A DNA stretch of 64,000 nucleotides from Nitrospirota bacterium. GTDB taxonomy: Bacteria > Nitrospirota > UBA9217. A model generated the notes under the pieces. It saw only the letters and a program-made list of their open reading frames with translations, was not told the DNA's origin and did no database searches. Numbering within the stretch: the first letter of the stretch is position 1; every line of letters begins with the position of its first letter. The translations under genes and the position numbers were made by a program. The DNA lies in the NCBI GenBank assembly GCA_963754875.1, contig CAVWHO010000016.1, positions 288,001 to 352,000 on the forward strand. Direction: 5' to 3'. Below, piece after piece: positions 38,132-62,401 of this stretch.

Positions 38132-38499
38132 ACCCATTCTCCTTCGCCTGCTGAACCACCTATATTCTATCAAATAAAACGTCACCTGCGATAATTACAT
38201 ACAGCAGTTTTCCTTTGGAGTAGAAGTAAGTCTTTTTAGGTAACAACGGGAGTATGTGAACTTTCGTAAAGTGAGTCTGAGAAGCAACAGCTATTTTTGC
38301 AGTCTGCAACGTGTTGTACTTTATAAATCCTATTTTTACAGTCACATGTCAATGTGCTTGGATGTTACCTTAGTACACGGGAGGATATCCAGGCACGAAA
38401 AAGTAATCTCTGGAAATATGCTATCATTAAAAAAGTTTTATGATGGCGGGTATAAATAAGTTGCAATGTATTTTAATTCACGCATAAAAGGAGACGAAT

Positions 38500-38823
38500 A
38501 TGGCAGCGTTAGAGGTCGTCAAGAGCATGAAGGGGTCCCTTACCAGACGTCCAACTATGAACACAAAGCATGAGGTTGAGTTTTCATTTGCTGCTCCAAA
38601 AGCCAAGAAAGTCTGCATCGCGGGGAATTTCAATGATTGGAATATGACATCGATGCCAATGAAAAAAAGCGCCGACGGTACCTGGAAAATAAAGCTTAAG
38701 TTTTCACCGGGGAAGTACGAGTATAAGTATGTGGCGGACGGGATGTGGGTTCAGGACATGTCGTGCTCCGAGACAGTGCTGAATCCTTACGGCACATGTA
38801 ATAACGTCATTGGCATCGAGTAA
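38500..38823 (+). CDS. Stand-alone glycogen-binding (CBM48/AMPK-beta-like) domain protein
   Basis: AGNFNDW, GKYEYKYVADG.W, NPYG..NNV. Confidence 0.88.
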   Translation: MAALEVVKSMKGSLTRRPTMNTKHEVEFSFAAPKAKKVCIAGNFNDWNMTSMPMKKSADGTWKIKLKFSPGKYEYKYVADGMWVQDMSCSETVLNPYGTCNNVIGIE

Positions 38824-38869
38824 AAAAGCAGGGGGGAGTTAAATTCTTCGTGAGGAACGCGACAAGTTC

Positions 38870-39226
38870 ATGTTAATCAGCGACCACCATTCCAAAACTC
38901 AATGGCTCTTTACAGACAAGCCCAGTACGGCGGTTTATACAGCTCGGGATATCATCGAGCTCTGGAACCCAATTTTGTTCGTTACCCATGACCCAGACGA
39001 TGGGTCATGGCATTTTTTCTCGGGTCCAACTGTTCCAGACACTGATGCTAGGATCGTTGCTCTTGATGAAATCATCTACGGTGATCCGAGCGTGATCGAG
39101 CTGGCTGATCTGCCGCGCGGATGGATTGCTGTTCGAGGGACCATTGAGACGCCTTGGCAACGGACAAATTTTTCCCACTACATCTTGCACACGATGTGCG
39201 CAAGTTCCTTGGAAAATGTCTCATAA
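38870..39226 (+). CDS. Hypothetical protein (DUF2185/Imm33-like)
   Basis: VTHDPDDGSWHF, DPSV..LADLP.GW; 3' end overlaps the convergent gene. Confidence 0.6.
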   Translation: MLISDHHSKTQWLFTDKPSTAVYTARDIIELWNPILFVTHDPDDGSWHFFSGPTVPDTDARIVALDEIIYGDPSVIELADLPRGWIAVRGTIETPWQRTNFSHYILHTMCASSLENVS

Positions 39227-40812
39227 TTGACCGAATAGTCGATAGGGCATTCGATGAGGACCACTGTTTTCAGGGAGAATGCCTTTCGCAGCAGTTCCGA
39301 TAAATCATCGCCCTGCCTCACTTTCATGCCCACGGCCCCGTAGCTTTCGGCGTACTTTACGAAGTCAGGGTTCCGGTAGTCGAGGCCGAAGTTCTCAAAT
39401 CCCTTGGCCTGCTGTTCCCACTTGATGAACCCGTAAGCATTGTCATTCAGCACCAGCACGACGATCGGAATCGAGTAACGAAGCGCGAGCTCGAGCTCGC
39501 GCGAGTTCATCATGAACCCGCCGTCGCCCACCACGGCGAGCACGTTCCGGTCGGGTCTCACCATCTTGGCCGCTATGCCGGTAGAAAGGCCCGCTCCCAT
39601 GGTTGCAAGGGCATTGTCCAGTAGAAAGGTATTGGGTTTATACGTACGATAGAGCCTTGAGAACCACAGTTTGTAGATCCCGTTGTCCAGGGTCACGATA
39701 TCCTCGTGCGACAGAACCTCACGCACGTGCCAGACGACTTCCTGCGGCGTCAGGGGATACTGTTTCTTAAAATCGAGCGACAGTTTTTCATCCAGGAATT
39801 CCCGGACCGCCGAAAAGGTTTCTCCGCTCTTTCTTCCCGCTATCAGCTCCCCGAGTTGCCGGAGGGAGCAGGAAATGTCGCCGATAATCTCGATGTCCGG
39901 GTTGTAGAAGGCATCGATTTCCGCGGCTGCAAAGTCGATGTTGATGATCTTTTTATCGAGGTCGCGGTTCCAGACAAAGGGCGGATACTCTACGATGTTG
40001 TACCCGATCGTGATGATGAGGTCTGCCAGGTCGATCCCGCAGTTCACATAATCGCGCCGGTGGATGCCTGTTGCGAAAAGGCTGTATTTCGATGCATCGC
40101 TCACCACGCCCTTACCCATTTGCGTATGGACCGCGTAAATGCCGGTCTTCTCGATGAATTGCATGAGCTGGCGCGTGATCAGGTTGCGGTTCGCGCCCGA
40201 TGAGAGAATGATGAGCGGATTTTTTGATTGATTGATCAGCTCTGCGGCCCGCAGGAGGGCCTTGGGATCGGGTGCAGGTCTGCGTACGAGACCACGCTTC
40301 TGCACCCGCGCTTCGGTCTTGCTTTCCGCGACATCTTCGGGAAGCTCAATGTGCACTGCGCCGGGCCGTTCGGCCTGGGCGAGTTTAAATGCGTTCCTAA
40401 CGATCGTCGGGACAGTCCCCGGGTCGATTATGGAGACGGCTTCCTTTGTAATCGGCCGCATCATGCTTACAATGTCGATAAGCTGGAACCGGGCCTGCCG
40501 GTTCCCGCGGACCGCCTTTTGTCCCGAGATGGAGATGAACGGCGCGCCGATCAGTTGGGCATGGGCAACGCCCGTCACCAGGTTCGTCGCCCCCGGGCCG
40601 AGGGTCGAAAAGCACACGCCGGCTTTTCCCGTCAAGCGGCCGTAGGTGGCCGCCATGAACGCCGCGGTCTGCTCGTGGCGCGTGACAATGAGCTTGATCT
40701 TCGACGTACGGAGCGACTCGAGAAAATCGAGGTTCTCCTCCCCGGGCACACCGAAGATGTATTCCACGCCCTCTTCCTCCAGCTGCCTCACGAACAGGTC
40801 CGATGCTTTCAT
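39178..40812 (-). CDS. ThDP-dependent enzyme of the acetolactate synthase-like family; candidate 2-oxoglutarate decarboxylase
   Basis: PGEENL, RHEQ, GPGATN, GDGGF...ND ThDP motif; no ilvN; follows SSADH. Confidence 0.85.
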   Translation of the reverse strand: MKASDLFVRQLEEEGVEYIFGVPGEENLDFLESLRTSKIKLIVTRHEQTAAFMAATYGRLTGKAGVCFSTLGPGATNLVTGVAHAQLIGAPFISISGQKAVRGNRQARFQLIDIVSMMRPITKEAVSIIDPGTVPTIVRNAFKLAQAERPGAVHIELPEDVAESKTEARVQKRGLVRRPAPDPKALLRAAELINQSKNPLIILSSGANRNLITRQLMQFIEKTGIYAVHTQMGKGVVSDASKYSLFATGIHRRDYVNCGIDLADLIITIGYNIVEYPPFVWNRDLDKKIINIDFAAAEIDAFYNPDIEIIGDISCSLRQLGELIAGRKSGETFSAVREFLDEKLSLDFKKQYPLTPQEVVWHVREVLSHEDIVTLDNGIYKLWFSRLYRTYKPNTFLLDNALATMGAGLSTGIAAKMVRPDRNVLAVVGDGGFMMNSRELELALRYSIPIVVLVLNDNAYGFIKWEQQAKGFENFGLDYRNPDFVKYAESYGAVGMKVRQGDDLSELLRKAFSLKTVVLIECPIDYSVNYETFSKELAHIVCKM

Positions 40813-40837
40813 GAAATCTCCCTATAAAAAAGTAGAA

Positions 40838-40947
40838 GGACGATAGACGACCGCTTGTTTCACGCGCTAAGACGATGGACGTGTAAAGCATGACCCTGCC
40901 CTTTGGTCCACTGCGTCCATCTTCCCTCGTCCCTCGTCCTTCGTCTG
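40838..40947. repeat. Bipartite inverted heptamer array (GGACGAT / TCGTCCC)
   Basis: ggacgat agacgac..agacgat ggacgtg ... gcgtcca tcttccc tcgtccc tcgtcct tcgtctg. Confidence 0.65.
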
Positions 40948-40952
40948 CTATG

Positions 40953-42458
40953 CTACTCCCGCACCAGGACCGTCTTGATATTCACGAACTCCTTCAGGCC
41001 GAAATGCGAAAGTTCCCTTCCGATGCCGGACTTCTTCACGCCGCCAAAAGGCAGCCGCGGGTCAGATTTTACCATATCGTTGATCGTCACGGTCCCGGTC
41101 TCGATCTGCGTTGCAAGCCGTTCTGCCCGGTCGATATTTCTGCTCCAAATCGAAGCTCCGAGCCCGAATTCGGTGTTGTTCGCCACTTTGATCGCTTCAT
41201 CCTCGCTCTTAACTGTGATTATCGGAGCGATCGGTCCAAACACCTCTTCGGTCATGATCTTCATGCTGTCCGAGGCGTTCACCACCGCGCAGGGCGAAAA
41301 GAAATATCCCTTCTTGAAGGGAGCTTGGTCCGTCTGCAGCACCTTTGCGCCTTTCGCCTTGGCGTCTTTGAGCTGCTCGTTCAGGGACTGGAGAATGTCC
41401 TTCCTGGACAGCGGGCCCACGTCCGTGGTCTCGTTCATGGGATCGCCGACCTTGAGCTCCTTGAGCCGCGCCATAAAGTGCTTCGTGAATTCATCGGCCA
41501 CCTTGTCCATGACGATGAAACGCTTTGCCGCGATGCAACTCTGGCCCGCATTGATCATGCGCGCATTGGCCGCCGTCCGCGCCGACTTCTCGATGTCCGC
41601 GTCGTCAAGCACGATATAGGGGTCCGAACCGCCGAGTTCTAGCACGACCTTCTTGATTCTGGCCCCTGCATGGGCGCCGACCTCTTCACCGGCCTTGTTG
41701 CTGCCCGTGAGCGACACCGCGTCCACCTTGTCCTCGTCGATGAGTCTCAACGTTTCCACCGAGTTTATAAGCAGGGTCTTGAAGACACTCTCCGGGAAGC
41801 CCGCCTTCTTGAAGGAATCTTCGATGGCAAGCGCCGTCATCGGGACGTTTGACGCATGCTTCAGGACGACCACGTTCCCGGCTGCGATCGACGGCACGCC
41901 GAACCGGAAGGCCTGCCAGAACGGAAAGTTCCAGGGCATGATCGCGAGCACGACGCCGAGGGGCTGGAACATGACATAGCTCTTCTTTGCCTCCGTCTTG
42001 ATCTCCTCGGGCTTCAGAAACGCCTCCGCATTGTCGGCATAATAATCCGCGAGCCAGGCGCACTTCTCGACCTCGGCGAGCGATTCTTTAATGGGCTTGC
42101 CCATTTCCTTCGTAATGAGCTCGGCGTAATTGCGTTTCTCCGCCCTGAGCACCTCAGCCAGCTTCTTCACGTATTTCACGCGCTCGGTCACCGGGATGTC
42201 GCGCCATTTCAAAAATGCGTTTCGCGAGGCGTTCAGTTGCCAGTCAACCTCCTGCCTGCTCATGAGATTGAATTCTTTTATAATCTGTTCTGTATAAGGA
42301 TTAATCGACTGTATTTTCGTCGGTTTCCGAACAACTGATTTTAACGCAGATCCTGTTTTCATTTTTTTCACCCCCTGGGAGGATACGGCTCGTTTCTTTT
42401 TGGGGCGTGCAGTTCCTTTTTTCATTGCCGCCTTAGTACGTGCTTTCGTAGTCGCCAT
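40953..42458 (-). CDS. Succinate-semialdehyde dehydrogenase (Sad/GabD1-type) with Lys-rich N-terminal extension
   Basis: MPWNFPFWQ, LKHASNVP, LELGGSDP, NAGQSCIAAKRF, SDPRLPFGG. Confidence 0.9.
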   Translation of the reverse strand: MATTKARTKAAMKKGTARPKKKRAVSSQGVKKMKTGSALKSVVRKPTKIQSINPYTEQIIKEFNLMSRQEVDWQLNASRNAFLKWRDIPVTERVKYVKKLAEVLRAEKRNYAELITKEMGKPIKESLAEVEKCAWLADYYADNAEAFLKPEEIKTEAKKSYVMFQPLGVVLAIMPWNFPFWQAFRFGVPSIAAGNVVVLKHASNVPMTALAIEDSFKKAGFPESVFKTLLINSVETLRLIDEDKVDAVSLTGSNKAGEEVGAHAGARIKKVVLELGGSDPYIVLDDADIEKSARTAANARMINAGQSCIAAKRFIVMDKVADEFTKHFMARLKELKVGDPMNETTDVGPLSRKDILQSLNEQLKDAKAKGAKVLQTDQAPFKKGYFFSPCAVVNASDSMKIMTEEVFGPIAPIITVKSEDEAIKVANNTEFGLGASIWSRNIDRAERLATQIETGTVTINDMVKSDPRLPFGGVKKSGIGRELSHFGLKEFVNIKTVLVRE

Positions 42459-42537
42459 CTGCGCCCTCCCTAGAAATAGTTCAAAGTTTAAAAAGCAAAA
42501 AAGCAGAAATATGATTCAACCGCAAATTGCATCCGCT

Positions 42538-42553
42538 TGTGACTCACATCAAC
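42538..42553. promoter_or_regulatory. Possible Crp/Fnr-family site upstream of SSADH
   Basis: TGTGA-N6-TCAAC. Confidence 0.35.
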
Positions 42554-42555
42554 TT

Positions 42556-43776
42556 CTACTTCCTCTTCTCCATCGGCTCATACGTGCACCCTATCTTGCC
42601 GCAGTAGTTGCCGATGTACTCTGACGACGGCCGGTAGAGCGCCGGTTTTCCCTGGGCGTCGCCGAACTTCTCCTCGATGATGTGCGCGGTCCAGCCCGCG
42701 ATCCGGGCCACGGCAAAGACCGGCGTCATCAGGTCCTGCGGGATGCCCATCATGTGGTAGACCGAAGCGCTGTAAAAGTCCACATTCGGCTTGATCGTGG
42801 TCTTCCCGCGTTTCTTGAATTCGGCCACCGCAGTCTCCTCGATCTGCGTGGAGAGACGGTACCACTGCTCCTGTTCCAGCTTCTCCCCAAGCCGTTTGCC
42901 CATCTCCTTCAGGAATTTCGCCCTTGGGTCGGTTGTCTTGTACACGGCGTGGCCCATGCCCATGATCTTCCGGCCGCTGTCGAGCTGCTTTTTCACCCAA
43001 CCAGCGACATCCTTCTCATTTTGAAGCTCCATCAGCATCTTCATGACCTGCGCATTGGCCCCGCCGTGCAGGCTTCCGGAAAGGGCGCCCACTCCTGCGG
43101 CGACGCCGGCGTACATGTGCGCCTGCGTCGAGACCACCTCTCGGCAGGCAAAGGTCGAGGCATTGAATGAATGGTCCGCATGGAGCACGAGCGCGGTATC
43201 GAGGTCTTTCGCCGTCTCCGGATCCGGCTTGATCCCGCTCAGTTGCCAAAGAAAGTTCGCGGCATGAGAAAGCTTGTCATCGGACGGGAGCGGTTCCAGT
43301 TCCAATCGTATCCTCTGCCAGGAGGAGACGATTTCAGCTACCCGCGCGATGAGCCGGATGGCCTTCGACATGTTCGCCTCCCGCGTTTCCAGCACAAGCT
43401 CGGGATCAGTCGTTGCCAGCAGCGGTATCGATGCCTGGAGCACATCCATGGGTTGCGCCGCTGGGGGCAGTCGCTTCATGTTCTCAATCACGAAGCCCGG
43501 CAAGCGCCTCGCCTCGACGAGCCGCCGTGAAAAATCCTTGAGTTGCTCAGGCGTGGGCAGGCTGTCGTGGAGCAGGAGATAAGTGGTTTCTTCGAACGTA
43601 GAATATCTTGCCAGGTCTTCTATCCGATAACCGCGATAGATAAGAACGCCATTCTCACCATCCACGTCGGAGATCTTCGTATCCGCAATGGTGACACCGC
43701 GCAGGCCGACGTTTTTTGTTGTTGCATCCTCGGTTGTTCTCTGTTTCATTTCTCTTGTTTGAGCATTTGCAACCAT
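42556..43776 (-). CDS. gltA: Citrate synthase (or 2-methylcitrate synthase)
   Basis: HADH..NAST, LHGGAN, GMGHAVY..DPR, PNVDFY. Confidence 0.92.
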   Translation of the reverse strand: MVANAQTREMKQRTTEDATTKNVGLRGVTIADTKISDVDGENGVLIYRGYRIEDLARYSTFEETTYLLLHDSLPTPEQLKDFSRRLVEARRLPGFVIENMKRLPPAAQPMDVLQASIPLLATTDPELVLETREANMSKAIRLIARVAEIVSSWQRIRLELEPLPSDDKLSHAANFLWQLSGIKPDPETAKDLDTALVLHADHSFNASTFACREVVSTQAHMYAGVAAGVGALSGSLHGGANAQVMKMLMELQNEKDVAGWVKKQLDSGRKIMGMGHAVYKTTDPRAKFLKEMGKRLGEKLEQEQWYRLSTQIEETAVAEFKKRGKTTIKPNVDFYSASVYHMMGIPQDLMTPVFAVARIAGWTAHIIEEKFGDAQGKPALYRPSSEYIGNYCGKIGCTYEPMEKRK

Positions 43777-43798
43777 GGCTGACACCTTCCTTTTTGAA

Positions 43799-45742
43799 CT
43801 AAGCTGCCATGAGCAGTTCTCTCTTCACAAAATTCAGCGTGCCGCCTGCCAGCAAATGCCTGCGCTGGCGGTCGGACACGTCCAGGAACGTGATGATCGT
43901 TTCTCCGTCCACCTCGACCGGGATCTCCCGATCTCCCCGCTCCAGCCGTCGTTTTACATCGGGAAACGCGACCTTCGTGCCTTTGTTCAGCCTTTCGTAG
44001 TCCGCAGGATCTTTGAACGTGAGCGGGAGGATGCCGAAGTTGCAGAGATTGGACTTGTGGATCCGGGCAAAGCTCTTGACGATCTTTGCGCGTACGCCGA
44101 GATAGCGCGGCGCCAGGGCCGCATGCTCGCGGCTCGATCCCTGGCCGTAGTTCTCGCCGCCCACGACGACCACCGTACCCCGGGCCCGGCACTCTTTCGC
44201 GAAATCGGGATCGACCTGGGAAAACACGAACTCGGACAGCGCTTCGATGTTCGAACGGAACGGCAACACGCGGTTGCCTGCCGGCATGATCCCGTCCGTC
44301 GACATGTTGTCTCCCACTTTCAACACGACCTCGGCTGCGAGCGTGTCAGGCAGCGGACCGAGCTCCGGCAGCGGCTTGATGTTCGGCCCGCGGACGATCT
44401 CCGTCTTTTTGAGTTCGTCTGATGGGAAGACAATCGACTTCTCGTCGATCAGATACTGTTTCGGGTCTTCGATCGCAGGATACGCCATCTCTTTTGCCAG
44501 ATCGCGGGGATCGGTTATGACGCCCTTAATGGCTGCCGCGGTCGCTGTCTCGGGCGAGCAGAGATAGATCTTGTCGTCCTTGGTCCCGCTTCTTCCCGGA
44601 AAGTTCCGCGGAAACGTTCGCAGGCTCACTTCGCCGGTGCCCGGCGCCTGGCCCATGCCGATGCATCCCTGGCACCCGGGCTCGTGCACCCGCGCGCCCG
44701 AGGTGAGAAAGGAGAGGAGACCGCCTGCCTGATAGACATTTTCGAGCACCTGACGGCTGCCGGGGTTCACGTGGAACGACGTGTCGGGATGAACGCGCCT
44801 GCCTTCGAGCATCTTGGCGGCGATCATCAGGTCCCGGAAGGAGGAGTTCACGCTGCTGCCCACGATGGCCTGGTCGACTTTGAGGCCTGCGATCTCCCGC
44901 ACCGGCACAATATTTCCCGGCGACGACGGCTTGGCAATCAGGGGCTCCAGCTTCGAAAGATCGATCTCGGCATATTCATTGTACAGGGCGCCTTCGTCGG
45001 CAGAAAGCGGGACCCAGGAAGCGCCCCGTCCCTGGGCGATCATATACTCCCGCGTACGTTCATCGGACGGGAAGATCGAGGTCGTGGCGCCCGTCTCGGT
45101 TCCCATGTTGCCGATGGTTTCCCGGTCCGTGGCTGAAAGGGTTTTCACGCCCGGTCCGTAATACTCGATGATCTTTCCCACGCATCCCTTGACGTCGTAG
45201 CGCCTGAGCATTTCGAGGATCACGTCTTTCGCACTCACCCAATCGGGAAGCTTCCCAATGAGCTTCACCCCGAGGACTTTGGGGCAGGGGAGAAAGTAAG
45301 GGTAACCGGCCATGGCCAGTGCCACGTCCAGCCCGCCTGCGCCGATGCCGAGCATCGAGATGCCGGCGGCCCCCGGGGTATGACTGTCCGCGCCGAGGAG
45401 GGTCTTGCCCGGGACGCCGAAACGCTCCATATGCACCTGGTGGGAAACGCCGTTACCGGGCCTGCTGAAATTGACGCCGTACCGGGCGGCCGCGGTCTGG
45501 AGAAATTTATGGTCGTCCGCGTTCTTATTGTCCGTCTGGAGGAGGTTGTGGTCCACATACTGCGCGGCGAGCTCGGCTTTCACCCGGTCGATGCCGATTG
45601 CTTCAAACTCCAGCATCGCAAGTGTGCCGGTCGCGTCCTGCAGTAAGGTATGGTCGATCGTGATGCCGATCTCCCTGCCCGGGACCAGCTCTCCCTCCTT
45701 CAGATGGGCTTCCAAAATCTTATTCGTAAGGTTTTTTTTCAA
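43799..45742 (-). CDS. Aconitate hydratase, short single-chain type
   Basis: QDATG, DHN, DSHT, GCQGC, RNFPGR, STD, GSSREHA; TTG start. Confidence 0.9.
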   Translation of the reverse strand: MKKNLTNKILEAHLKEGELVPGREIGITIDHTLLQDATGTLAMLEFEAIGIDRVKAELAAQYVDHNLLQTDNKNADDHKFLQTAAARYGVNFSRPGNGVSHQVHMERFGVPGKTLLGADSHTPGAAGISMLGIGAGGLDVALAMAGYPYFLPCPKVLGVKLIGKLPDWVSAKDVILEMLRRYDVKGCVGKIIEYYGPGVKTLSATDRETIGNMGTETGATTSIFPSDERTREYMIAQGRGASWVPLSADEGALYNEYAEIDLSKLEPLIAKPSSPGNIVPVREIAGLKVDQAIVGSSVNSSFRDLMIAAKMLEGRRVHPDTSFHVNPGSRQVLENVYQAGGLLSFLTSGARVHEPGCQGCIGMGQAPGTGEVSLRTFPRNFPGRSGTKDDKIYLCSPETATAAAIKGVITDPRDLAKEMAYPAIEDPKQYLIDEKSIVFPSDELKKTEIVRGPNIKPLPELGPLPDTLAAEVVLKVGDNMSTDGIMPAGNRVLPFRSNIEALSEFVFSQVDPDFAKECRARGTVVVVGGENYGQGSSREHAALAPRYLGVRAKIVKSFARIHKSNLCNFGILPLTFKDPADYERLNKGTKVAFPDVKRRLERGDREIPVEVDGETIITFLDVSDRQRRHLLAGGTLNFVKRELLMAA

Positions 45743-46098: not shown

Positions 46099-48768
46099 CT
46101 ACTCCGGATTCGGCCCGACCGTAATCTGGACGAAATCCGCGGGCCGGACCCATTTGGCAAATGCGTCTCGCACCTGGTCCGCTGTTGTCTCCAGAAACTT
46201 TCCCGCAGCCCGGACAGACTCGTCGAGCGGCAGATCGTCGAGTGAACGGGAGAGCAGCGTTCCGGCGATGCCGTCCATGCTCGCTTCCCCGAGCGGGACC
46301 TGTCTTACCAGGAGCGTCTTGGCACGCCGCAGTTCCTCCTCCGTGACCGGCGTCGTCTGCATCTCGCGCAGGTTGCGCTCCACCATGGCCCGTGCTTTGG
46401 ACGCATTCGGCGGGTCACAGGCATAGGCGACGCCAAAGAGTGACCTGTTCTTTCCCGCCTCAATGAACGAGTCCACGGTATAGACCAGGCCAGCCTTCTC
46501 GCGCAGGTCGCGGTACAGCCGCGTGGCATAGAATGCGCCGGACAGCACGTGGTTGCCGAGCTGGAGTTTATAATAGTCGGGATGTGTGCGCGTCACCCCG
46601 ACCGTCTCGGCGAGCGTCACCTGGTCCTGGACCCTGCTCGCGTCGGGTATGACGGGACGTTGATGGTTTGTTCGGCGGCACCGGCGGGAGGTCTGTTTGA
46701 GGCTTTTTCCCCGCTGCTTTCCATGCGCCGAAATATTTTTCAACCGCTGCCCGCGCCCGCTCAGGCGTCACCTGCCCGATGATCACGATGGTCGTCATGT
46801 CCGGACGGAAGGCCTTTGCGTAATAGGCCTTTACGTCCTTGAGAGTAAGCGTTGCCACAGACTTCGGCGTGGCGTCGCGGAGGACCGGGTCGTCCTTGGG
46901 ATAGAGAGCTTCGCGCAGCGCTCGTTGCGAAAGATAGGCTGGGCTCTGGATCTGCCCCTGAAGAGAGCCGATCGTTTCCTGCTGACTCACGGTAAATGCT
47001 GATTCGGGAAGCGCCGGGTGCAGCAGGTTGTCTGCAAGGAGCTCCATTCCGCGCTCGAATCGGTCCGAAAGGACCCTGAGCGAGAACGACGTGCCCGCTG
47101 ATATGTCCGCCGCAATGTCGTCCTGGGCCTTCTGGAAGGCGATCCGATCAAGGGACGTCGTCCCGTATGAGAAAAGGCCCCCCAGCACGTCCGAAACCCC
47201 TTCTTTGTCCATCGGCTCCTCAAGATCGTCGTTGTTTTTCACCTGCCCGATGAGGCTGACGGTGGGGCTTACACTCTCCGGCTGAACGATCAAGCGGATC
47301 CCGTTGGGGAGGATGGTCACGACGGGGCTTAACTTCGACGTTGGAAGGACAGGCACTGCCTCCGCCTTCTTGGCCCAGGCGGGAAGTTCAACCGGCTTGG
47401 TGCCGCTCGGCGCGAAGGACTCCCTGCCCCCGAAGCCCTTCGAAGCCACGGGTTTGCCCGAGGGGCGAGGTGTGAGAACGGCCGTGATGGCCGTATCGTT
47501 AATCAGGTACTGTCTGGCCACGCGCTTCACGTCCTCTACCGTCACCTTCCTGATCGCATTGATGTCGTCATCAGGAGAGCTGCGGCCCTCGATTGCGACG
47601 GCCTCGGACCAGGCGGATGCAAGTCCTGCCACGGAATTCTTCTGGAATTCCGCATCTGCTATTTCATGCCGCTTGGACGCTTCGACAAGGTCGGCCGGCA
47701 CGCCGTTCTTCAGGTACCCGGCAATGATGTTCTTTAGCATGCTTACCAGCGCCGCTCCGTCCCCTCCCTGGGGAAACGCAGCGAGCGCATAGCCATACCC
47801 TGCCTTGGGCAGAATGCCTCCGTCGAAGGTGGTAAAGAGCGCTTTCCCCTCAGGGACCAGGGCGTAGAGATTTCCTCTCTTACTGTCCAGCACATCGGCA
47901 AGAATCGTTCCTGCAGCGAAATCCGGGCTGTCATATCCCGGCAGACGATAGGCCACGACCGCAAGTCCGTAGGGAAGATCGGTATCGAGGGCGATGGACG
48001 CCGCCTTGGGCGGCTGCAGAGTGATTGCTGGCCGTGCTGGCACGAGACCGCCGGGGGATCGGCTCGAACAGTTCCTTCACCTTTGCCAGCGTTTTCTGCG
48101 GGTCTGACGTCGCCTACGATGACGAGGACGGCATTGTTCGGAGCGTACCAGGTATCATAGAACTGCTTCAGCATGGCGCCCGTTGTCTTCTGGAACGAGG
48201 GGCGCGTGCCGAGCGCGTCATGGGCATAGGGCGTCCCCGTGAACATCGCCGCCAGGAGCTGCATGGAAAAAAGATAATCCGGGCTCGACAGATCCTGCGC
48301 CACCTCCTGTTCGATCGCACCCCGTTCCTGCTCCCAGAGCTCCTGCGAGTCGAGCACGCCGTGCATACGCATGGCTTCCACGTTCAGGGCCACGTCGAGG
48401 TCGTCCTTCGGCACGGTAAAAAAATACTGGGTCACGGTCTGCTGCGTGTCGGCGTTAAACTCGCCGCCCATGAGCGCCATGATGTTCGAGAGCTGGGCCG
48501 CGGACAGCCCCGGGCTCCCGCGAAACATCATGTGTTCCTGCGCGTGCGCCGTGCCCGGGAACCCCTCCGGCGCTTCATTGGAACCGACGAGATAGTTCAC
48601 CTCCGTGGTCACCACCGGCGCCAGTTGGTTTTCCACGATCACGACGCGCAGGCCGTTTTCTAAAGTCGCGCGCAGCACAGCACCGTTCGCGGCATACAAT
48701 GTTGAAACAATGACTATCAGAAATAATGTACTGAACGAAAAGAAGAGAAGTGACTTACAAGTCTTCAT
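46099..48768 (-). CDS. M16 (pitrilysin-like) zinc peptidase, secreted (three frameshifts)
   Basis: HAQEH (HxxEH), YAPNNA; frame breaks near 48105, 48045 and 46636. Confidence 0.85.
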
Positions 48769-54285: not shown

Positions 54286-55615
54286 TCAAAATTTTTCTCC
54301 TGTGGGAAAATTGACACTATATTCTGTTCCGTAATGGGCAGTTACAAGGTTTCCCCTCAACTTCTCGGCATGCAATATCCGTTTTACAGCCAGTTCGTAT
54401 GCCGCCTTGCGCATTCTGCATCGGGTTTCCCGACAGCGGCTCTGGACGTCGTTGAAGGCCGTGGTCATGATCTCCTTCAGCCGGGCAAGTACTTTTTCTT
54501 CAGGCCAGGCGTCTCCGTTCAGGTTCTGGCTCCATTCGAAGTAGCTGACCACAACGCCTCCCGCGTTGGCGAGAATGTCCGGGATGAGGAGGATGTCCCG
54601 GTTAAAGAGAATATCATCAGCTGCCGCAGTCGTCGGCGCATTGGCGAGTTCAAGAATGAACTGCGCTTTCACGTCCTTTGCATTGTTCGCGTCGAGCTGG
54701 TTCGAAAGCGCCGCGGGTATCAGCACATCGCAATCGATTGTAAGGAGCTCGGAGTTGGTGATGTCCCGTGCGCCGGGAAAGTGAACGATGGTGCCCGTCT
54801 TTTTTTTGTGCTCTCTGATCGCCGGGATGTCGAGGCCCTGCGGGTTCAGGATGCCGCCGTTGACATCGCTCACGGCCATGACGTTGTAGCCTCGTTCATG
54901 AAGGATACGCGCTGCGTTTTCACCCACGTTGCCGAACCCCTGGACCGCAACGCGAAGCCCGCGGGGATCCATGCCGCGGTCCTTCAGGGCCTGTTCGAGC
55001 ACATGGATACCACCCAGGGCAGTGGAATATCTGCGCGCCACGATGCCGCCCAGTTCCGGAGGTTTGCCCGTGACCACGGCGGGCACATGCTCGCGCTTGA
55101 TCCGTTCGAATTCATCGAGGATCCACGCCATGATCTGTTCGTCGGTGTAGACGTCCGGCGCGGGAATATCTTTGAACGGGCCGATGTAGTCGGCGATGGC
55201 CCGGATGTAGCCGCGCGTCACAAGTTCGAGGTCCCGCCGGGAGATGTCCATCGGGATTGACGACCACGCCGCCTTTTGCGCCGCCGAAGGGAATGTTCAC
55301 GACCGCGCACTTGAGTGCCATGAGAAAGGCCAGTTCGCTGGCATGCTCTGCGTTCATCTCCGGGTGGAACCGGATGCCGCCCTTGGCCGGCCCGCGGGCG
55401 TCGTTGTACTGCACGCGAAAGCCCGTGAACATCTGCGTCTTGCCGGTCGTCATCTTGACCGGAAAGCTTACCGTAAAGGACTGCCGCGGCACGGACAGGA
55501 GATCAAGTGCGTCCTGGGTAAGTCCCAAGTCGGTGTAGATCGTCTGCAGTTCGGTCATGCCGACGCTGCGGAGATCTTTTTCGTCTCGGTGGAGCCGGTC
55601 GTGGTTGCGGTTCAT
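54286..55615 (-). CDS. gdhA: Glu/Leu/Phe/Val dehydrogenase (frameshift near 55250)
   Basis: [37 protein letters not shown]. Confidence 0.88.
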
Positions 55616-55630
55616 GAACACCTCGAAGGC

Positions 55631-55710
55631 AGTTCAAAGTTCAGCGATCATAGTGCAAAGTAAAAATCTTGCTTCTTCAACTCGGAACTGTGAACTTTGA
55701 ACTCTGAACT
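55631..55710. repeat. Bipartite inverted heptamer array (AGTTCAA / TGAACTT)
   Basis: agttcaa agttcag cgatcat agtgcaa ... ggaactg tgaactt tgaactc tgaact. Confidence 0.7.
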
Positions 55711-55711
55711 A

Positions 55712-57135
55712 TTATTTTGTCAGTCCCGTCTTCTTCGCCGTTTCAGAAACGGCCGCGGCAACGCGGGCCGGGACTTCCCGGTCAAAGGGGCTGGGAATGA
55801 TGTAATCTTCGTGCAGCTCTTCGGTCTCGATACACATGGGCTATGGCCTTGGCAGCCGCGAGTTTCACGGCTTCGTTCACGCCATGGGCCCGCACGTCGA
55901 GGAGCCCGCGGAACATGCCGGGGAAGCCGAGCATGTTGTTGATCTGGTTCGGGTAGTCGGACCGTCCCGTTGCCATGACCCGCACCAGGTCGTGGACATC
56001 CTCGGGCGAGATCTCCGGGTCAGGGTTTGCAAGGGCGAAGACAACGGGGTCCTTTGCCATTTTCCTCACGTCGTCGGCGGAGATCACGTTCGGAGCCGAA
56101 AGACCGATGAAGACGTCAGCTCCCTTCATGGCGTCCGAAATGCGGCCTTTCAGTTTCCGCGGGTTCGTCACTTTCGCGAGCTCGCGCTTGGCGGGGTCCA
56201 TACCCTGCTTTCTGCCGACGGAGAGGACGCCGGTGCTGTCGCACACGGTGATGTCCTTGACGCCCGAGGCCAGGAGGATTTTGGTCACTGCCGTGCCCGC
56301 GGCGCCTGCGCCGACCACGACGACCTTGAACTTTTTGATGTCCCGCTTCAAGAGCCGCGAGACGTTGATGAGCGCGGCCAGCGCAACGACCGCGGTCCCG
56401 TGCTGGTCGTCATGGAACACGGGGATGTCGAGCAGCTTTCTGAGCCTTTTTTCGACCTCAAAACAGTGGGGCGCGGAAAAATCTTCCAGGTTGATGCCGC
56501 CGAAGGCCGGCGCTATGTTCTTCACGGTCTCGACGATCTCGTCCACGTTCTGTCGTGGCGAGCACGATCGGGAAGGCATCGATATTGGCGAACTCCTTGA
56601 AGATCATCGCCTTGCCTTCCATGACGGGAAGCGCTGCTTCGGGCCCGATGTCGCCGAGGCCCAGGACAGCAGTGCCGTCGGATATGACGGCAACGGAATT
56701 GCCTTTTATGGTGTAGCGGTAGGCATGCTCTTTATTCTGAAAGATGTCCATGCACACGCGCGCCACACCCGGGGTATAGACCTTGGAGAGGTCGTTCCGG
56801 TCCCGTAGCGGCAGCTTGTTTTTGATCTCGATCTTTCCGCCTTCATGGGCCAGGAACGTGCGGTCCGAGACCCTGATGACCTTGACGCCCGTAACGGTCC
56901 TGATCGCTTTTACAATGGCCTTTTCGTGTTCTTCGTTCTGGGCGTTTACGGTGATGTCGCGGATGATCTTGCCCTTTTCCACGCGCACGATGTCCACGGA
57001 GCCCAGGTCGCCGCCTGCGCTCGAAATGGCCGTGGCGATCCTCGCGAACATCCCGATCCTGTTCTCAATCTCCACTCTGATGCTGATGCTGTAGCTGGGA
57101 CTGCAGCTGTAGTCGGACGTGCATGCGTCGCTCAT
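55712..57135 (-). CDS. NAD(P)-dependent malic enzyme with N-terminal ACT domain (two frameshifts)
   Basis: YTPGVA, DGTAVLGLG, PVMEGK, HDDQHGT, GAGAAG, NQINN. Confidence 0.88.
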
Positions 57136-57467: not shown

Positions 57468-58863
57468 ATGACCGACTTTCGCATCGAAAAAGATTCCCTC
57501 GGGGAAGTAAAGGTCCCGAAAGATGCGCTCTACAGCGCCCAGACGCAGCGGGCTGTAGAAAACTTTCCCGTGAGCGGCATCGGCTTTTCCCGCGCCTTCC
57601 TCCGCGCCCTCGGGCTCATCAAGGCCACGGCCGCAGAGGTGAACGCCGGGCTCGGGTCTGCTCGATGCCACGATCGCCCATGCAATTCATCTCGCTGCTC
57701 TCGAAGTGTCTGACGGAAAATGGGACGACCAGTTCCCGCTCGACATTTACCAGACCGGCTCCGGCACGTCCACAAACATGAACGCAAACGAGGTGATCGC
57801 GAGCCGCGCGACCCAGATCCTCGGCGCTTCGGCAAAGCCCGTCCATCCGAATAATCATGTGAACATGGGCCAGTCGTCGAACGACGTCATTCCTGCCGCC
57901 ATCCATGTGAGCGCTTATCTCGAAGTAAGCGAAAAACTTCTGCCTGCGCTCAGGCACCTTCAGGGAACGCTCAAGAAGCGCGAAGCGGAGTTTCATGATA
58001 TAGTAAAAACGGGCAGGACCCATTTAATGGACGCCATGCCGGTAAGGCTCAGCCAGGAGATAAGCGGCTGGGCGTACCAGGTTGAGCTTGCAGTCGCCAG
58101 GATAGAATCCACCCTGCCCCGCCTGGCACAGCTCGCTATCGGCGGCACTGCCGTAGGCACGGGCATCAACGCACCTAAGGAGTTCGGCAAGATCGTGGCG
58201 AGCAGGCTTGCAGGCAGCACCAAGCTCCCCTTTGTCGAAACAGCGAATCATTTTGCCGCGCAGGCAACCATGGATTCCGCAGTCGAGCTCTCCGGGCAGT
58301 TGAAGACCACTGCATCGTCATTCATGAAGATGGCCAACGACCTCCGCTGGATGAACAGCGGTCCTATCGCAGGACTGGGTGAGATCTCCCTGCCGTCACT
58401 GCAGCCGGGATCGAGCATCATGCCCGGCAAGGTAAACCCCGTTATGTGCGAGATGATGATGATGGTCTGCGCCCAGGTCACGGGGAATGACGCCGCGATC
58501 ACGATCTGCAACCAGCAGGGCAATTTCGAGCTGAACGTCATGCTCCCGGCCGTAGCGCATAACCTGCTGCAGTCCATACAACTCATGGGGAACGCGGCGC
58601 GGCTTCTTGCGGACAAGGCCGTTGCCGGCTTTATTGTGAACAAGGAACGCATTGCGGGCCTGGTGGACCAGAACCCGATCCTCGTGACAGCGCTCAATCC
58701 CGTGATCGGTTACGACAAGGCCGCGCAGATCGCAAAAAAGGCTTATGCAGAAAAACGGTCCGTAAAAGACGTTGCCGCGGAAATGACGGGTCTGTCGAAG
58801 GCTGAATTGAACAAACTTCTCGATCCCGTGCCCATGACCGAGGGCGGGATCACCCAGGAGTAG
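57468..58863 (+). CDS. fumC: Class II fumarate hydratase (frameshift near 57655)
   Basis: [31 protein letters not shown]. Confidence 0.92.
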
Positions 58864-58890: not shown

Positions 58891-59567
58891 ATGAACTATC
58901 TTACCCACTTCCACAGTAAGCAGAAAGATCCTCATGGCCGTTTCCGGCCAGATACTCGTCTTCTTCATCCTCTTTCACATCGTTGGCAACTCTACGATTT
59001 TTTTCCACATGCTGAATGCCTACGTCGTCGGCCTCCACCATTTGCCGCTTCTGGTCTGGGGAGGCAGGCTCGTTCTCCTCGCTGCCTTCGCAATCCACAT
59101 CTATTACGGCATTGTGCTCAAGCTCGAAGAATTATGCCGCAAAGCCCCAGGCCTACGCCATGACCCGTTTCCGTCAGGCCACGTTCTCAGGCAGATACCA
59201 GATCTGGTCCGGCGTCGTGCTCCTTGCGTTTGTCGTTTACCATCTGCTCCAGTTCACCTTCCTGGTCCTCATCGACCCCTCGATCGCGCCGGCATCCCAT
59301 CCGGACGCGATGGGCAAGCCCGACGTGTTCACGATGGTCGTACGCAGTTTCCAGGAACCGGGAATCTCTCTGGCGTACCTCATCGCCCTGGGGGCGCTGA
59401 TGCTGCACCTGCTCCACGGCATCCAGAGTTCGTTCCAGACCTGGGGCCTCACCAGCGAGACAGCGCTCCCGGTGATCGAAACGTCCGGGACCATCGCGTC
59501 GATCATGCTGTTTCTGTGGTATATAGCGATCCCCGGCGTGATTGTTTTGGGAATATTGAAAGGTTGA
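58891..59567 (+). CDS. sdhC: Succinate dehydrogenase/fumarate reductase cytochrome b subunit (two frameshifts)
   Basis: [30 protein letters not shown]. Confidence 0.85.
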
Positions 59568-59570
59568 AGA

Positions 59571-59647
59571 AGCAGAGCGCATGGCGCAGAGAGCAGAGGG
59601 GATGAGGAATCAGGCTACCCCATGCTCCATGCGCTATGCTCCCTGCA
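59571..59647. repeat. Bipartite inverted heptamer array (GCAGAG/GCATGG / CCATGCT)
   Basis: agcagag cgcatgg cgcagag agcagag ... ccatgct ccatgcg ctatgct ccctgca. Confidence 0.7.
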
Positions 59648-59661
59648 CGGAGCATACGACT

Positions 59662-61575
<1,914 letters not shown>

Positions 61576-61660
61576 CGAACCGTTTAAACGTTAAAACGGT
61601 CAAGCGTCAAACGATCTACACCTTAAAGAACGAACACACTTTTTTCGAAGAGGTTGAAAC

Positions 61661-62401
61661 ATGAATCTGACATTATACGTCTGGCGACAACGCAACTCCG
61701 CGGACAAAGGCAAACTCGTTCAGTACGAAGCGAAGGACATCGAGAGCGACGTGTCCTTTCTTGAAATGCTCGATGTCCTGAACCAGGAATTGATTAAAAA
61801 GGGTGAAGAGCCCATCGCCTTCGACAGCGACTGCCGGGAAGGCATCTGCGGCATGTGCGGTCAGGTCGTGAACGGCATACCGCACGGCCCGCAGAAAAAG
61901 ACGACCGTCTGCCAGCTTCACATGCGCCACTTCAAGGACGGCGATACGATCTACATCGAACCCTTCCGCGCCAAGGCCTTCCCGGTCATAAAGGACCTCA
62001 TCGTTGACCGCGGCGCCTTTGACAAGATCATCCAGGCCGGAGGCTACGTCTCGGTCCACACCGGAGGCGTGCCTGACGGGAACACCATCCTGATTCCCAA
62101 ACAGGACGCGGACACGGCCATGGATGCTGCCGAGTGCATCGGCTGCGGGGCCTGCGTTGCTGCCTGTCCGAACGGCTCGGCAATGCTCTTTACCTCGGCC
62201 AAGGTGTCCCATCTCGCTCTGCTGCCGCAGGGAAAAGTAGAGGCCGCCAGACGCGTCTGTGCCATGACCGAGGAAATGCTGAACCAGGGCTTCGGCAACT
62301 GCAGCAATCATTATGAGTGCGAAGCGGTCTGTCCCAAGGGCATCAAAGTCAAATTTATCGCAAAGCTGAACCGGGAGTTCATCAAGGCCCAGATCACGTA
62401 G
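61661..62401 (+). CDS. sdhB: Succinate dehydrogenase/fumarate reductase Fe-S subunit
   Basis: [22 protein letters not shown]...ECEAVCP. Confidence 0.95.

Follow-up and report, generated by a model that had tools for sequence, protein, structure and literature searches.

A cluster of four genes in a 64,000-nucleotide stretch of a Nitrospirota genome (GTDB lineage UBA9217; assembly GCA_963754875.1, contig CAVWHO010000016.1, positions 288,001 to 352,000; the whole stretch is hereafter called the window) probably encodes, in its last two products, a bypass that leads from 2-oxoglutarate through succinic semialdehyde to succinate without coenzyme A. The cluster comprises four intact open reading frames (ORFs), co-directional on the minus strand and separated by gaps of 13, 97 and 140 bp in gene order, and the profile matches agree with the four genes laid out in the original prediction, which had been made from the letters of the window. 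The first gene (43799..45742), which starts with TTG, encodes an aconitase of the Aquifex type (PRK07229 / TIGR01342; 647 amino acids; 956 bits against a cut-off of 612, with these and all other profile scores and cut-offs taken from NCBIfam models). It is followed by a type II citrate synthase (42556..43785; 409 amino acids), just over the cut-off of TIGR01800 (422 versus 421.3), and by a dehydrogenase of 501 amino acids with a basic N-terminal extension (40953..42458), whose residues and profile match point to a likely succinic-semialdehyde dehydrogenase (SSADH) of the SsaD/Sad type. The last gene (39178..40812) encodes a thiamine diphosphate (ThDP)-dependent enzyme of 544 amino acids, a candidate 2-oxoglutarate decarboxylase that profile, tree and alignment place in an LDNG-x-YK sub-branch of PRK08322. 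The closest named relatives are from Nitrospirota metagenome-assembled genomes (MAGs), at 69-88% identity. Spacing and conservation suggest that the four genes are co-transcribed; a promoter and terminator scan was uninformative, giving 6 promoter-like sites versus 2.7 +/- 1.6 in shuffles and none upstream of the cluster's first gene on the minus strand.

In the proposed scheme, the citrate synthase and aconitase of the cluster, together with the NADP isocitrate dehydrogenase encoded on contig C22, would supply 2-oxoglutarate, which the nearby glutamate dehydrogenase could also supply or drain. The ThDP enzyme would decarboxylate it non-oxidatively, releasing CO2 and succinic semialdehyde. Using NADP+, the dehydrogenase would then oxidise the semialdehyde to succinate, a step that would yield NADPH and involve neither succinyl-CoA nor the formation of substrate-level ATP. 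From succinate, oxaloacetate would be regenerated by SdhCAB, FumC and malate dehydrogenase, closing the oxidative citric-acid cycle on paper. Both reactions, non-oxidative 2-oxoglutarate decarboxylation and NADP-linked succinate formation, are established for cyanobacterial OgdA and SsaD, according to the accessible text of PMC10418658 and PMC5160925. For the window we infer the substrate of the ThDP enzyme, as well as the direction and the size of the flux, and the assignment of the bypass draws less on the pocket of the decarboxylase itself than on the genomic context and the partner dehydrogenase.

The linkage of the four genes is not due to chance, because their order (aconitase, citrate synthase, SSADH, ThDP enzyme) is complete in 25 of 30 loci from the taxonomic family of the window genome; conservation of the linkage had been named as a check in the original prediction. 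A close orthologue of the ThDP enzyme is present in 23 of 24 family relatives and in 33 of 37 genomes of a larger draw, and the 30 loci consist of all 23 from the first set plus one from each of 7 further family genomes. The remaining five loci stop at a contig edge (two), lack the aconitase (two) or lack both upstream genes (one), and the SSADH and ThDP genes adjoin in all 30. Outside the family, the four-gene cluster is found in two Nitrospirota genomes of other families and in two deltaproteobacterial MAGs. In one of these loci (L044) a glutamate dehydrogenase gene (gdh) lies upstream and NAD isocitrate dehydrogenase, a putA-like gene and sdhAB lie downstream, and a further four-gene locus (L043) also carries gdh and icd. 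Loci L039 and L280-L282 likewise have gdh upstream, and L281 and L287 have malic enzyme with fumC. Methanosarcina (L042, L053) has the SSADH-ThDP pair, 60% and 68% identical to that of the window. In Proteobacteria, Bacteroidota and others (L059-L110) members of the same decarboxylase branch are mostly followed by a different type of aldehyde dehydrogenase, about 25% identical to SsaD, two scanned members of which fall below every NCBIfam cut-off listed. At a Nitrospirota locus of another kind (L041:3379-8638), a ThDP orthologue (68% identical) with no dehydrogenase beside it follows, after 11 bp, a transaldolase-transketolase pair that was identified by sequence similarity.

The dehydrogenase keeps all 11 residues that were mutated in the SSADH of Cyanothece, as reported in the accessible part of PMC7510979; the numbering was mapped through the cyanobacterial SsaD that adjoins ogdA at locus L256, to which the window protein is 47% identical. 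According to the same source, W135, R139 and S420 of the Cyanothece enzyme hold the carboxylate of the semialdehyde, K154 and S157 are the NADP determinants and C262, E228 and N131 are catalytic. The cyanobacterial residues are found in the window dehydrogenase as C308, E274, N177, W181, R185, S465, K200 and S203, and these motifs are nearly unchanged across the dehydrogenase copies of the family. The best solved relatives are the cyanobacterial SSADH structures 3vz1/4it9 (443 bits). From its sequence the protein is likely a SsaD/Sad-type SSADH that prefers NADP. Its Lys/Arg-rich N-terminal extension of about 45 residues (window 42320-42458) is also present in the family orthologues and is absent in cyanobacterial and Methanosarcina dehydrogenases.

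The ThDP enzyme falls in the same enzyme family as OgdA. It scores 789 on PRK08322 (cut-off 509), a model titled 'acetolactate synthase large subunit', and would be labelled automatically as the original prediction had foreseen; a Microcystis-type OgdA (L215) scores 872 on the same model. It is below the cut-offs for AlsS (TIGR02418, 422 versus 551; PRK08617, 455 versus 510) and for biosynthetic IlvB (TIGR00118, 370 versus 538). Our OgdA reference comes from metagenome contigs and agrees with the characterised Microcystis MaKGD, which needed the chaperone plasmid pTf16 for expression, in its length, at both ends and at the numbered residues; no named cyanobacterial protein was among the best 120 matches to a query from the other sub-branch, nor among the plasmid matches listed. 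In a tree of 32 rows (LG+G4), a subset drawn from 71 rows, the 28 PRK08322-type rows form one group (97/96) that excludes AlsS and IlvB, both of which attach by long branches. The window enzyme keeps E47, K381, A403, M405, D430 and D457, and five of the six residues mutated in MaKGD (E50, M410, D435, D462, Y465, L467) are identical, L467 being F462 here; those kept are mostly generic ThDP/Mg binders. K381, the equivalent of MaKGD K386, is invariant in 64/64 aligned family sequences and is replaced by His in AlsS and by Gln in IlvB. A predicted model of the enzyme, with a predicted local distance difference test (pLDDT) score of 91.8, has the acetolactate synthase fold, with a template-modelling (TM) score of 0.95 to the catabolic enzyme, and neither the predicted structure nor the fold search discriminates among substrates. 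Two likenesses to OgdA had been claimed at the ends of the protein. The PGEENL start is real, but it is found in both sub-branches of the family and was rejected as an OgdA marker; at the C-terminus (IVCKM) little is shared beyond one aligned cysteine.

The closest solved sequence to the ThDP enzyme is PDB 13bb chain A (383 bits), which was deposited as 'acetolactate synthase' and shares the LDNG motif. A second PRK08322 paralogue (L001), over the cut-off and 45% identical, is found elsewhere in the genome (G000:C20:185994-187616); it has a pocket motif of its own, lies on the OgdA side of the family and has no aldehyde dehydrogenase neighbour, and similar copies occur in several relatives. 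Next to the ThDP gene, an 871-bp block at window 38293-39159 is repeated at C16:361601-362470 with 95.8% identity; it carries two small plus-strand ORFs, the second of which extends into the end of the ThDP gene.

Elsewhere in the 4.3-Mb genome, NADP isocitrate dehydrogenase (C22), malate dehydrogenase and the other enzymes of the cycle are present, so the conversion of 2-oxoglutarate to succinate is its sole gap. The gene sucA was not found in this genome nor in any of the others (41/41 genomes searched), and sucC, a two-subunit Kor, a succinate CoA-transferase over cut-off and a glutamate decarboxylase were likewise not found in the window genome. Biosynthetic acetolactate synthase is encoded in a separate ilvD-ilvB-ilvN-ilvC-leuA cluster on C17, and the ThDP enzyme is thus not the only IlvB-like protein of the genome. 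A methylcitrate cluster (G000:C8:251360-257567; prpB-like, prpC, prpD, aconitase) includes a methylcitrate synthase gene apart from the citrate synthase of the four-gene cluster, and the sole isocitrate-lyase-family match, upstream of that synthase, is most likely prpB. A second PRK07229 aconitase, 54% identical, is encoded at G000:C22:101520-103460.

A number of observations weigh against the bypass. The ThDP enzyme is only 43% identical to OgdA and, although it belongs to OgdA's family, it lies outside OgdA's own branch, in a 14-row branch (100/100) that holds no cyanobacterial enzymes, as a quick tree of all 71 rows agrees. Just two (A408, K386) of the six 2-oxoglutarate contacts of MaKGD, which come from docking on a model and five of which are unmutated, are kept; the others change from V382 to N, L467 to F, Q254 to H and, with reversal of charge, K471 to E. 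The window branch carries LDNG-x-YK in place of the DVGAHK of OgdA. At the position of K471, Lys is found in several family orthologues and in Methanosarcina, and H251, R252 and R108 could serve as alternative binders of the distal carboxylate in the window enzyme. A literature search, in which subscription journals were thinly covered, gave no assay of an enzyme of this branch and no paper on the operon. Orthologues of 68-79% identity have no adjoining dehydrogenase in four genomes of other families (L041, L274, L276, L277), and icd lies outside the cluster in the window's family. The dehydrogenase reaches 547 on its best NCBIfam match, the SSADH model PRK09406, below the cut-off of 730; this cut-off is not decisive, because the cyanobacterial SsaD of L256 misses it too (686).

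The genome inventory adds to these points. The window genome is 90% complete. A two-subunit Kor-like enzyme is present in 8 of 24 relatives, and the window genome itself encodes a split Vor-type 2-oxoacid:ferredoxin oxidoreductase, with alpha on C14 (60668-61837) and beta and gamma on C21 (68940-70293), which could act on 2-oxoglutarate. It therefore cannot be claimed that the genome lacks a Kor-like enzyme; of the absences for which a search had been suggested, those of sucA, sucC and a two-subunit Kor hold. Both in the window genome and in 5/5 relatives examined, a recN-like gene precedes the alpha gene, which is usually followed by cysK; the beta and gamma genes stand beside purF-like and aroQ-like genes. 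We also tested the operon as a replacement for sucCD and rejected this as a diagnostic: families without the operon have no sucC either (0/6, 0/5, 0/14), the same is true of all four genomes of the window's family without the ThDP gene, and sucC, where it occurs in the family (7 of 37 genomes), is always accompanied by the ThDP gene, so the two distributions show no replacement pattern. In both of the sucC-bearing family genomes that were checked, the neighbours of sucCD are methylmalonyl-CoA mutase genes. The bypass as originally predicted is supported by the linkage, the ilvBNC genes elsewhere, the SsaD residues and the failure to find sucA and sucC, with the qualification that a lack of sucCD is common in basal Nitrospirota regardless of the operon.

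Against this background we weighed other explanations. The ThDP enzyme may decarboxylate another 2-oxo acid or several of them (pyruvate, 2-oxoadipate, branched or aromatic ones), with the dehydrogenase oxidising the resulting aldehydes. The four altered contacts, with K471 to E among them, the separation from the OgdA branch, the unrelated aldehyde dehydrogenase type beside the most distant members of the window branch and the orphan orthologues, one of them right behind transaldolase-transketolase, would all fit such an activity. We consider it unlikely nonetheless, as the W/R/S residues that bind the carboxylate are all present in the dehydrogenase, K381 is kept, and the conserved context (citrate synthase, aconitase, gdh, icd, sdh) indicates the 2-oxoglutarate node. 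A carboligase, either the catabolic acetolactate synthase of the database label or an enzyme coupling an acceptor to activated 2-oxoglutarate or pyruvate, is more improbable still. The nearest fold is indeed that of catabolic acetolactate synthase and no OgdA structure was among the matches listed, but the nearest structures to true OgdA are catabolic acetolactate synthases as well. The enzyme is under the AlsS cut-offs and shares 29-32% identity with AlsS, from which the tree separates it; acetolactate decarboxylase (budA) was not found in the genome and gave one strong match among 24 relatives, ilvBNC lies elsewhere, and a carboligase would leave the fixed dehydrogenase neighbour unexplained.

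A third possibility is compatible with the proposed enzyme functions and concerns what they are for. The chemistry could be as proposed without the cycle running closed for energy: in a Wood-Ljungdahl host, citrate synthase and aconitase would feed glutamate synthesis, and the pair would act as an overflow route, as a source of NADPH or in the breakdown of glutamate/proline. The genome carries acetyl-CoA synthase (acsB) and dsrA, gdh stands upstream in several relatives and the putA-like gene accompanies the cluster in L044, and Sdh/Frd could run in either direction; flux-balance calculations cited in the accessible text of PMC5160925 give minimal flux in the light for the cyanobacterial bypass. 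On the other side, the enzymes of the full oxidative cycle are all encoded, and the pair is clustered with the entry enzymes in most family loci. We give this explanation an appreciable chance, clearly below even. The most extended form of the bypass hypothesis seems to us slightly more credible than that, though it too falls short of an even chance: basal Nitrospirota with a Wood-Ljungdahl pathway and sulfite reductase would run a complete oxidative cycle through the bypass, and the decarboxylase would represent a second 2-oxoglutarate decarboxylase subfamily whose substrate pocket has been rebuilt and whose members, labelled 'acetolactate synthase', are distributed over Methanosarcina, deltaproteobacteria, Proteobacteria and Bacteroidota.

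The OgdA/SsaD bypass itself is already known (accessible text of PMC9768450). PRK08322 is common to the window enzyme and to the cyanobacterial OgdA/KGD enzymes that work with SsaD (Synechococcus 7002 A2770/A2771, Synechocystis Sll1981, Microcystis MaKGD). As in cyanobacteria, the decarboxylase adjoins a SsaD-type dehydrogenase with the same active-site residues, the ThDP/Mg residues and the K386 equivalent are kept, and no SucA was found in the genomes searched. Unlike in cyanobacteria, the decarboxylase forms part of a separate LDNG-x-YK branch with a largely altered set of docked contacts, the pair is fixed behind aconitase and citrate synthase, and the host has dsrA and acetyl-CoA synthase. 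The Methanosarcina pairs share the order of genes and the type of dehydrogenase, and their 68% identical ThDP enzyme lies with that of the window in one 5-row branch (100/100); they differ in having no citrate synthase or aconitase alongside in the loci fetched, and the literature search gave no assay for them. AlsS/BudB and IlvB have the same fold and the same generic ThDP motifs and are the origin of the automatic label, but differ in their pocket residues and in the absence of a budA or ilvN neighbour in the window.

Occurrence outside cyanobacteria is less new than had been implied: in 2011 Zhang and Bryant found close relatives of the genes in certain methanogens and anaerobic bacteria, as told in the accessible part of a memorial article (PMC12214013), and the Methanosarcina pairs are presumably among those homologues. 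PMC12137691 names the enzyme in a reference only, and the accessible text of PMC10203281 does not mention the 2-oxoglutarate-to-succinate step. In a genome survey, UBA9217 and Thermodesulfovibrionia, two basal classes of Nitrospirota, are described as encoding reductive tricarboxylic acid cycles that are incomplete (PMC11033732, accessible text). The pathway is thus known and its wider occurrence was foreseen in 2011; what is new here is the placement of the decarboxylase in a sister branch, the conservation count, the failed sucC replacement test and the split Vor-type enzyme. A kgd/sad bypass is also said to occur in Methylomicrobium buryatense, which our literature search did not confirm. 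If the bypass operates as proposed, the family would close the oxidative cycle without succinyl-CoA, metabolic reconstructions of common subsurface sulfur and nitrogen cyclers would change, and a large branch of ThDP enzymes, including the Methanosarcina homologues, may prove to be mislabelled 'acetolactate synthase'.

Other genes of central metabolism lie 8.5-16.7 kb from the aconitase start, where the original prediction had listed gdh, malic enzyme, fumC and sdhCAB. All four are there, two of them imperfectly: gdh (54286..55621, minus strand) is split by a frameshift into two ORFs, and malic enzyme is represented by a piece (55782..56579, minus strand) matching positions 118-359 of the PRK12861 profile, with an overlapping ORF upstream. 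The class II fumarase gene fumC (57706..58863, plus strand) has an ORF spanning profile positions 79-456, and sdhCAB / frdCAB (58934..62401, plus strand) encodes, by profile, a b558 subunit, a PRK07573 flavoprotein and a PRK07570 iron-sulfur subunit. Splits into overlapping ORFs are seen in a peptidase-like region (window 46099-48768), in gdh and malic enzyme (54286-57135) and in the aconitase of the methylcitrate cluster (G000:C8:251360-254119), and are probably assembly indels.

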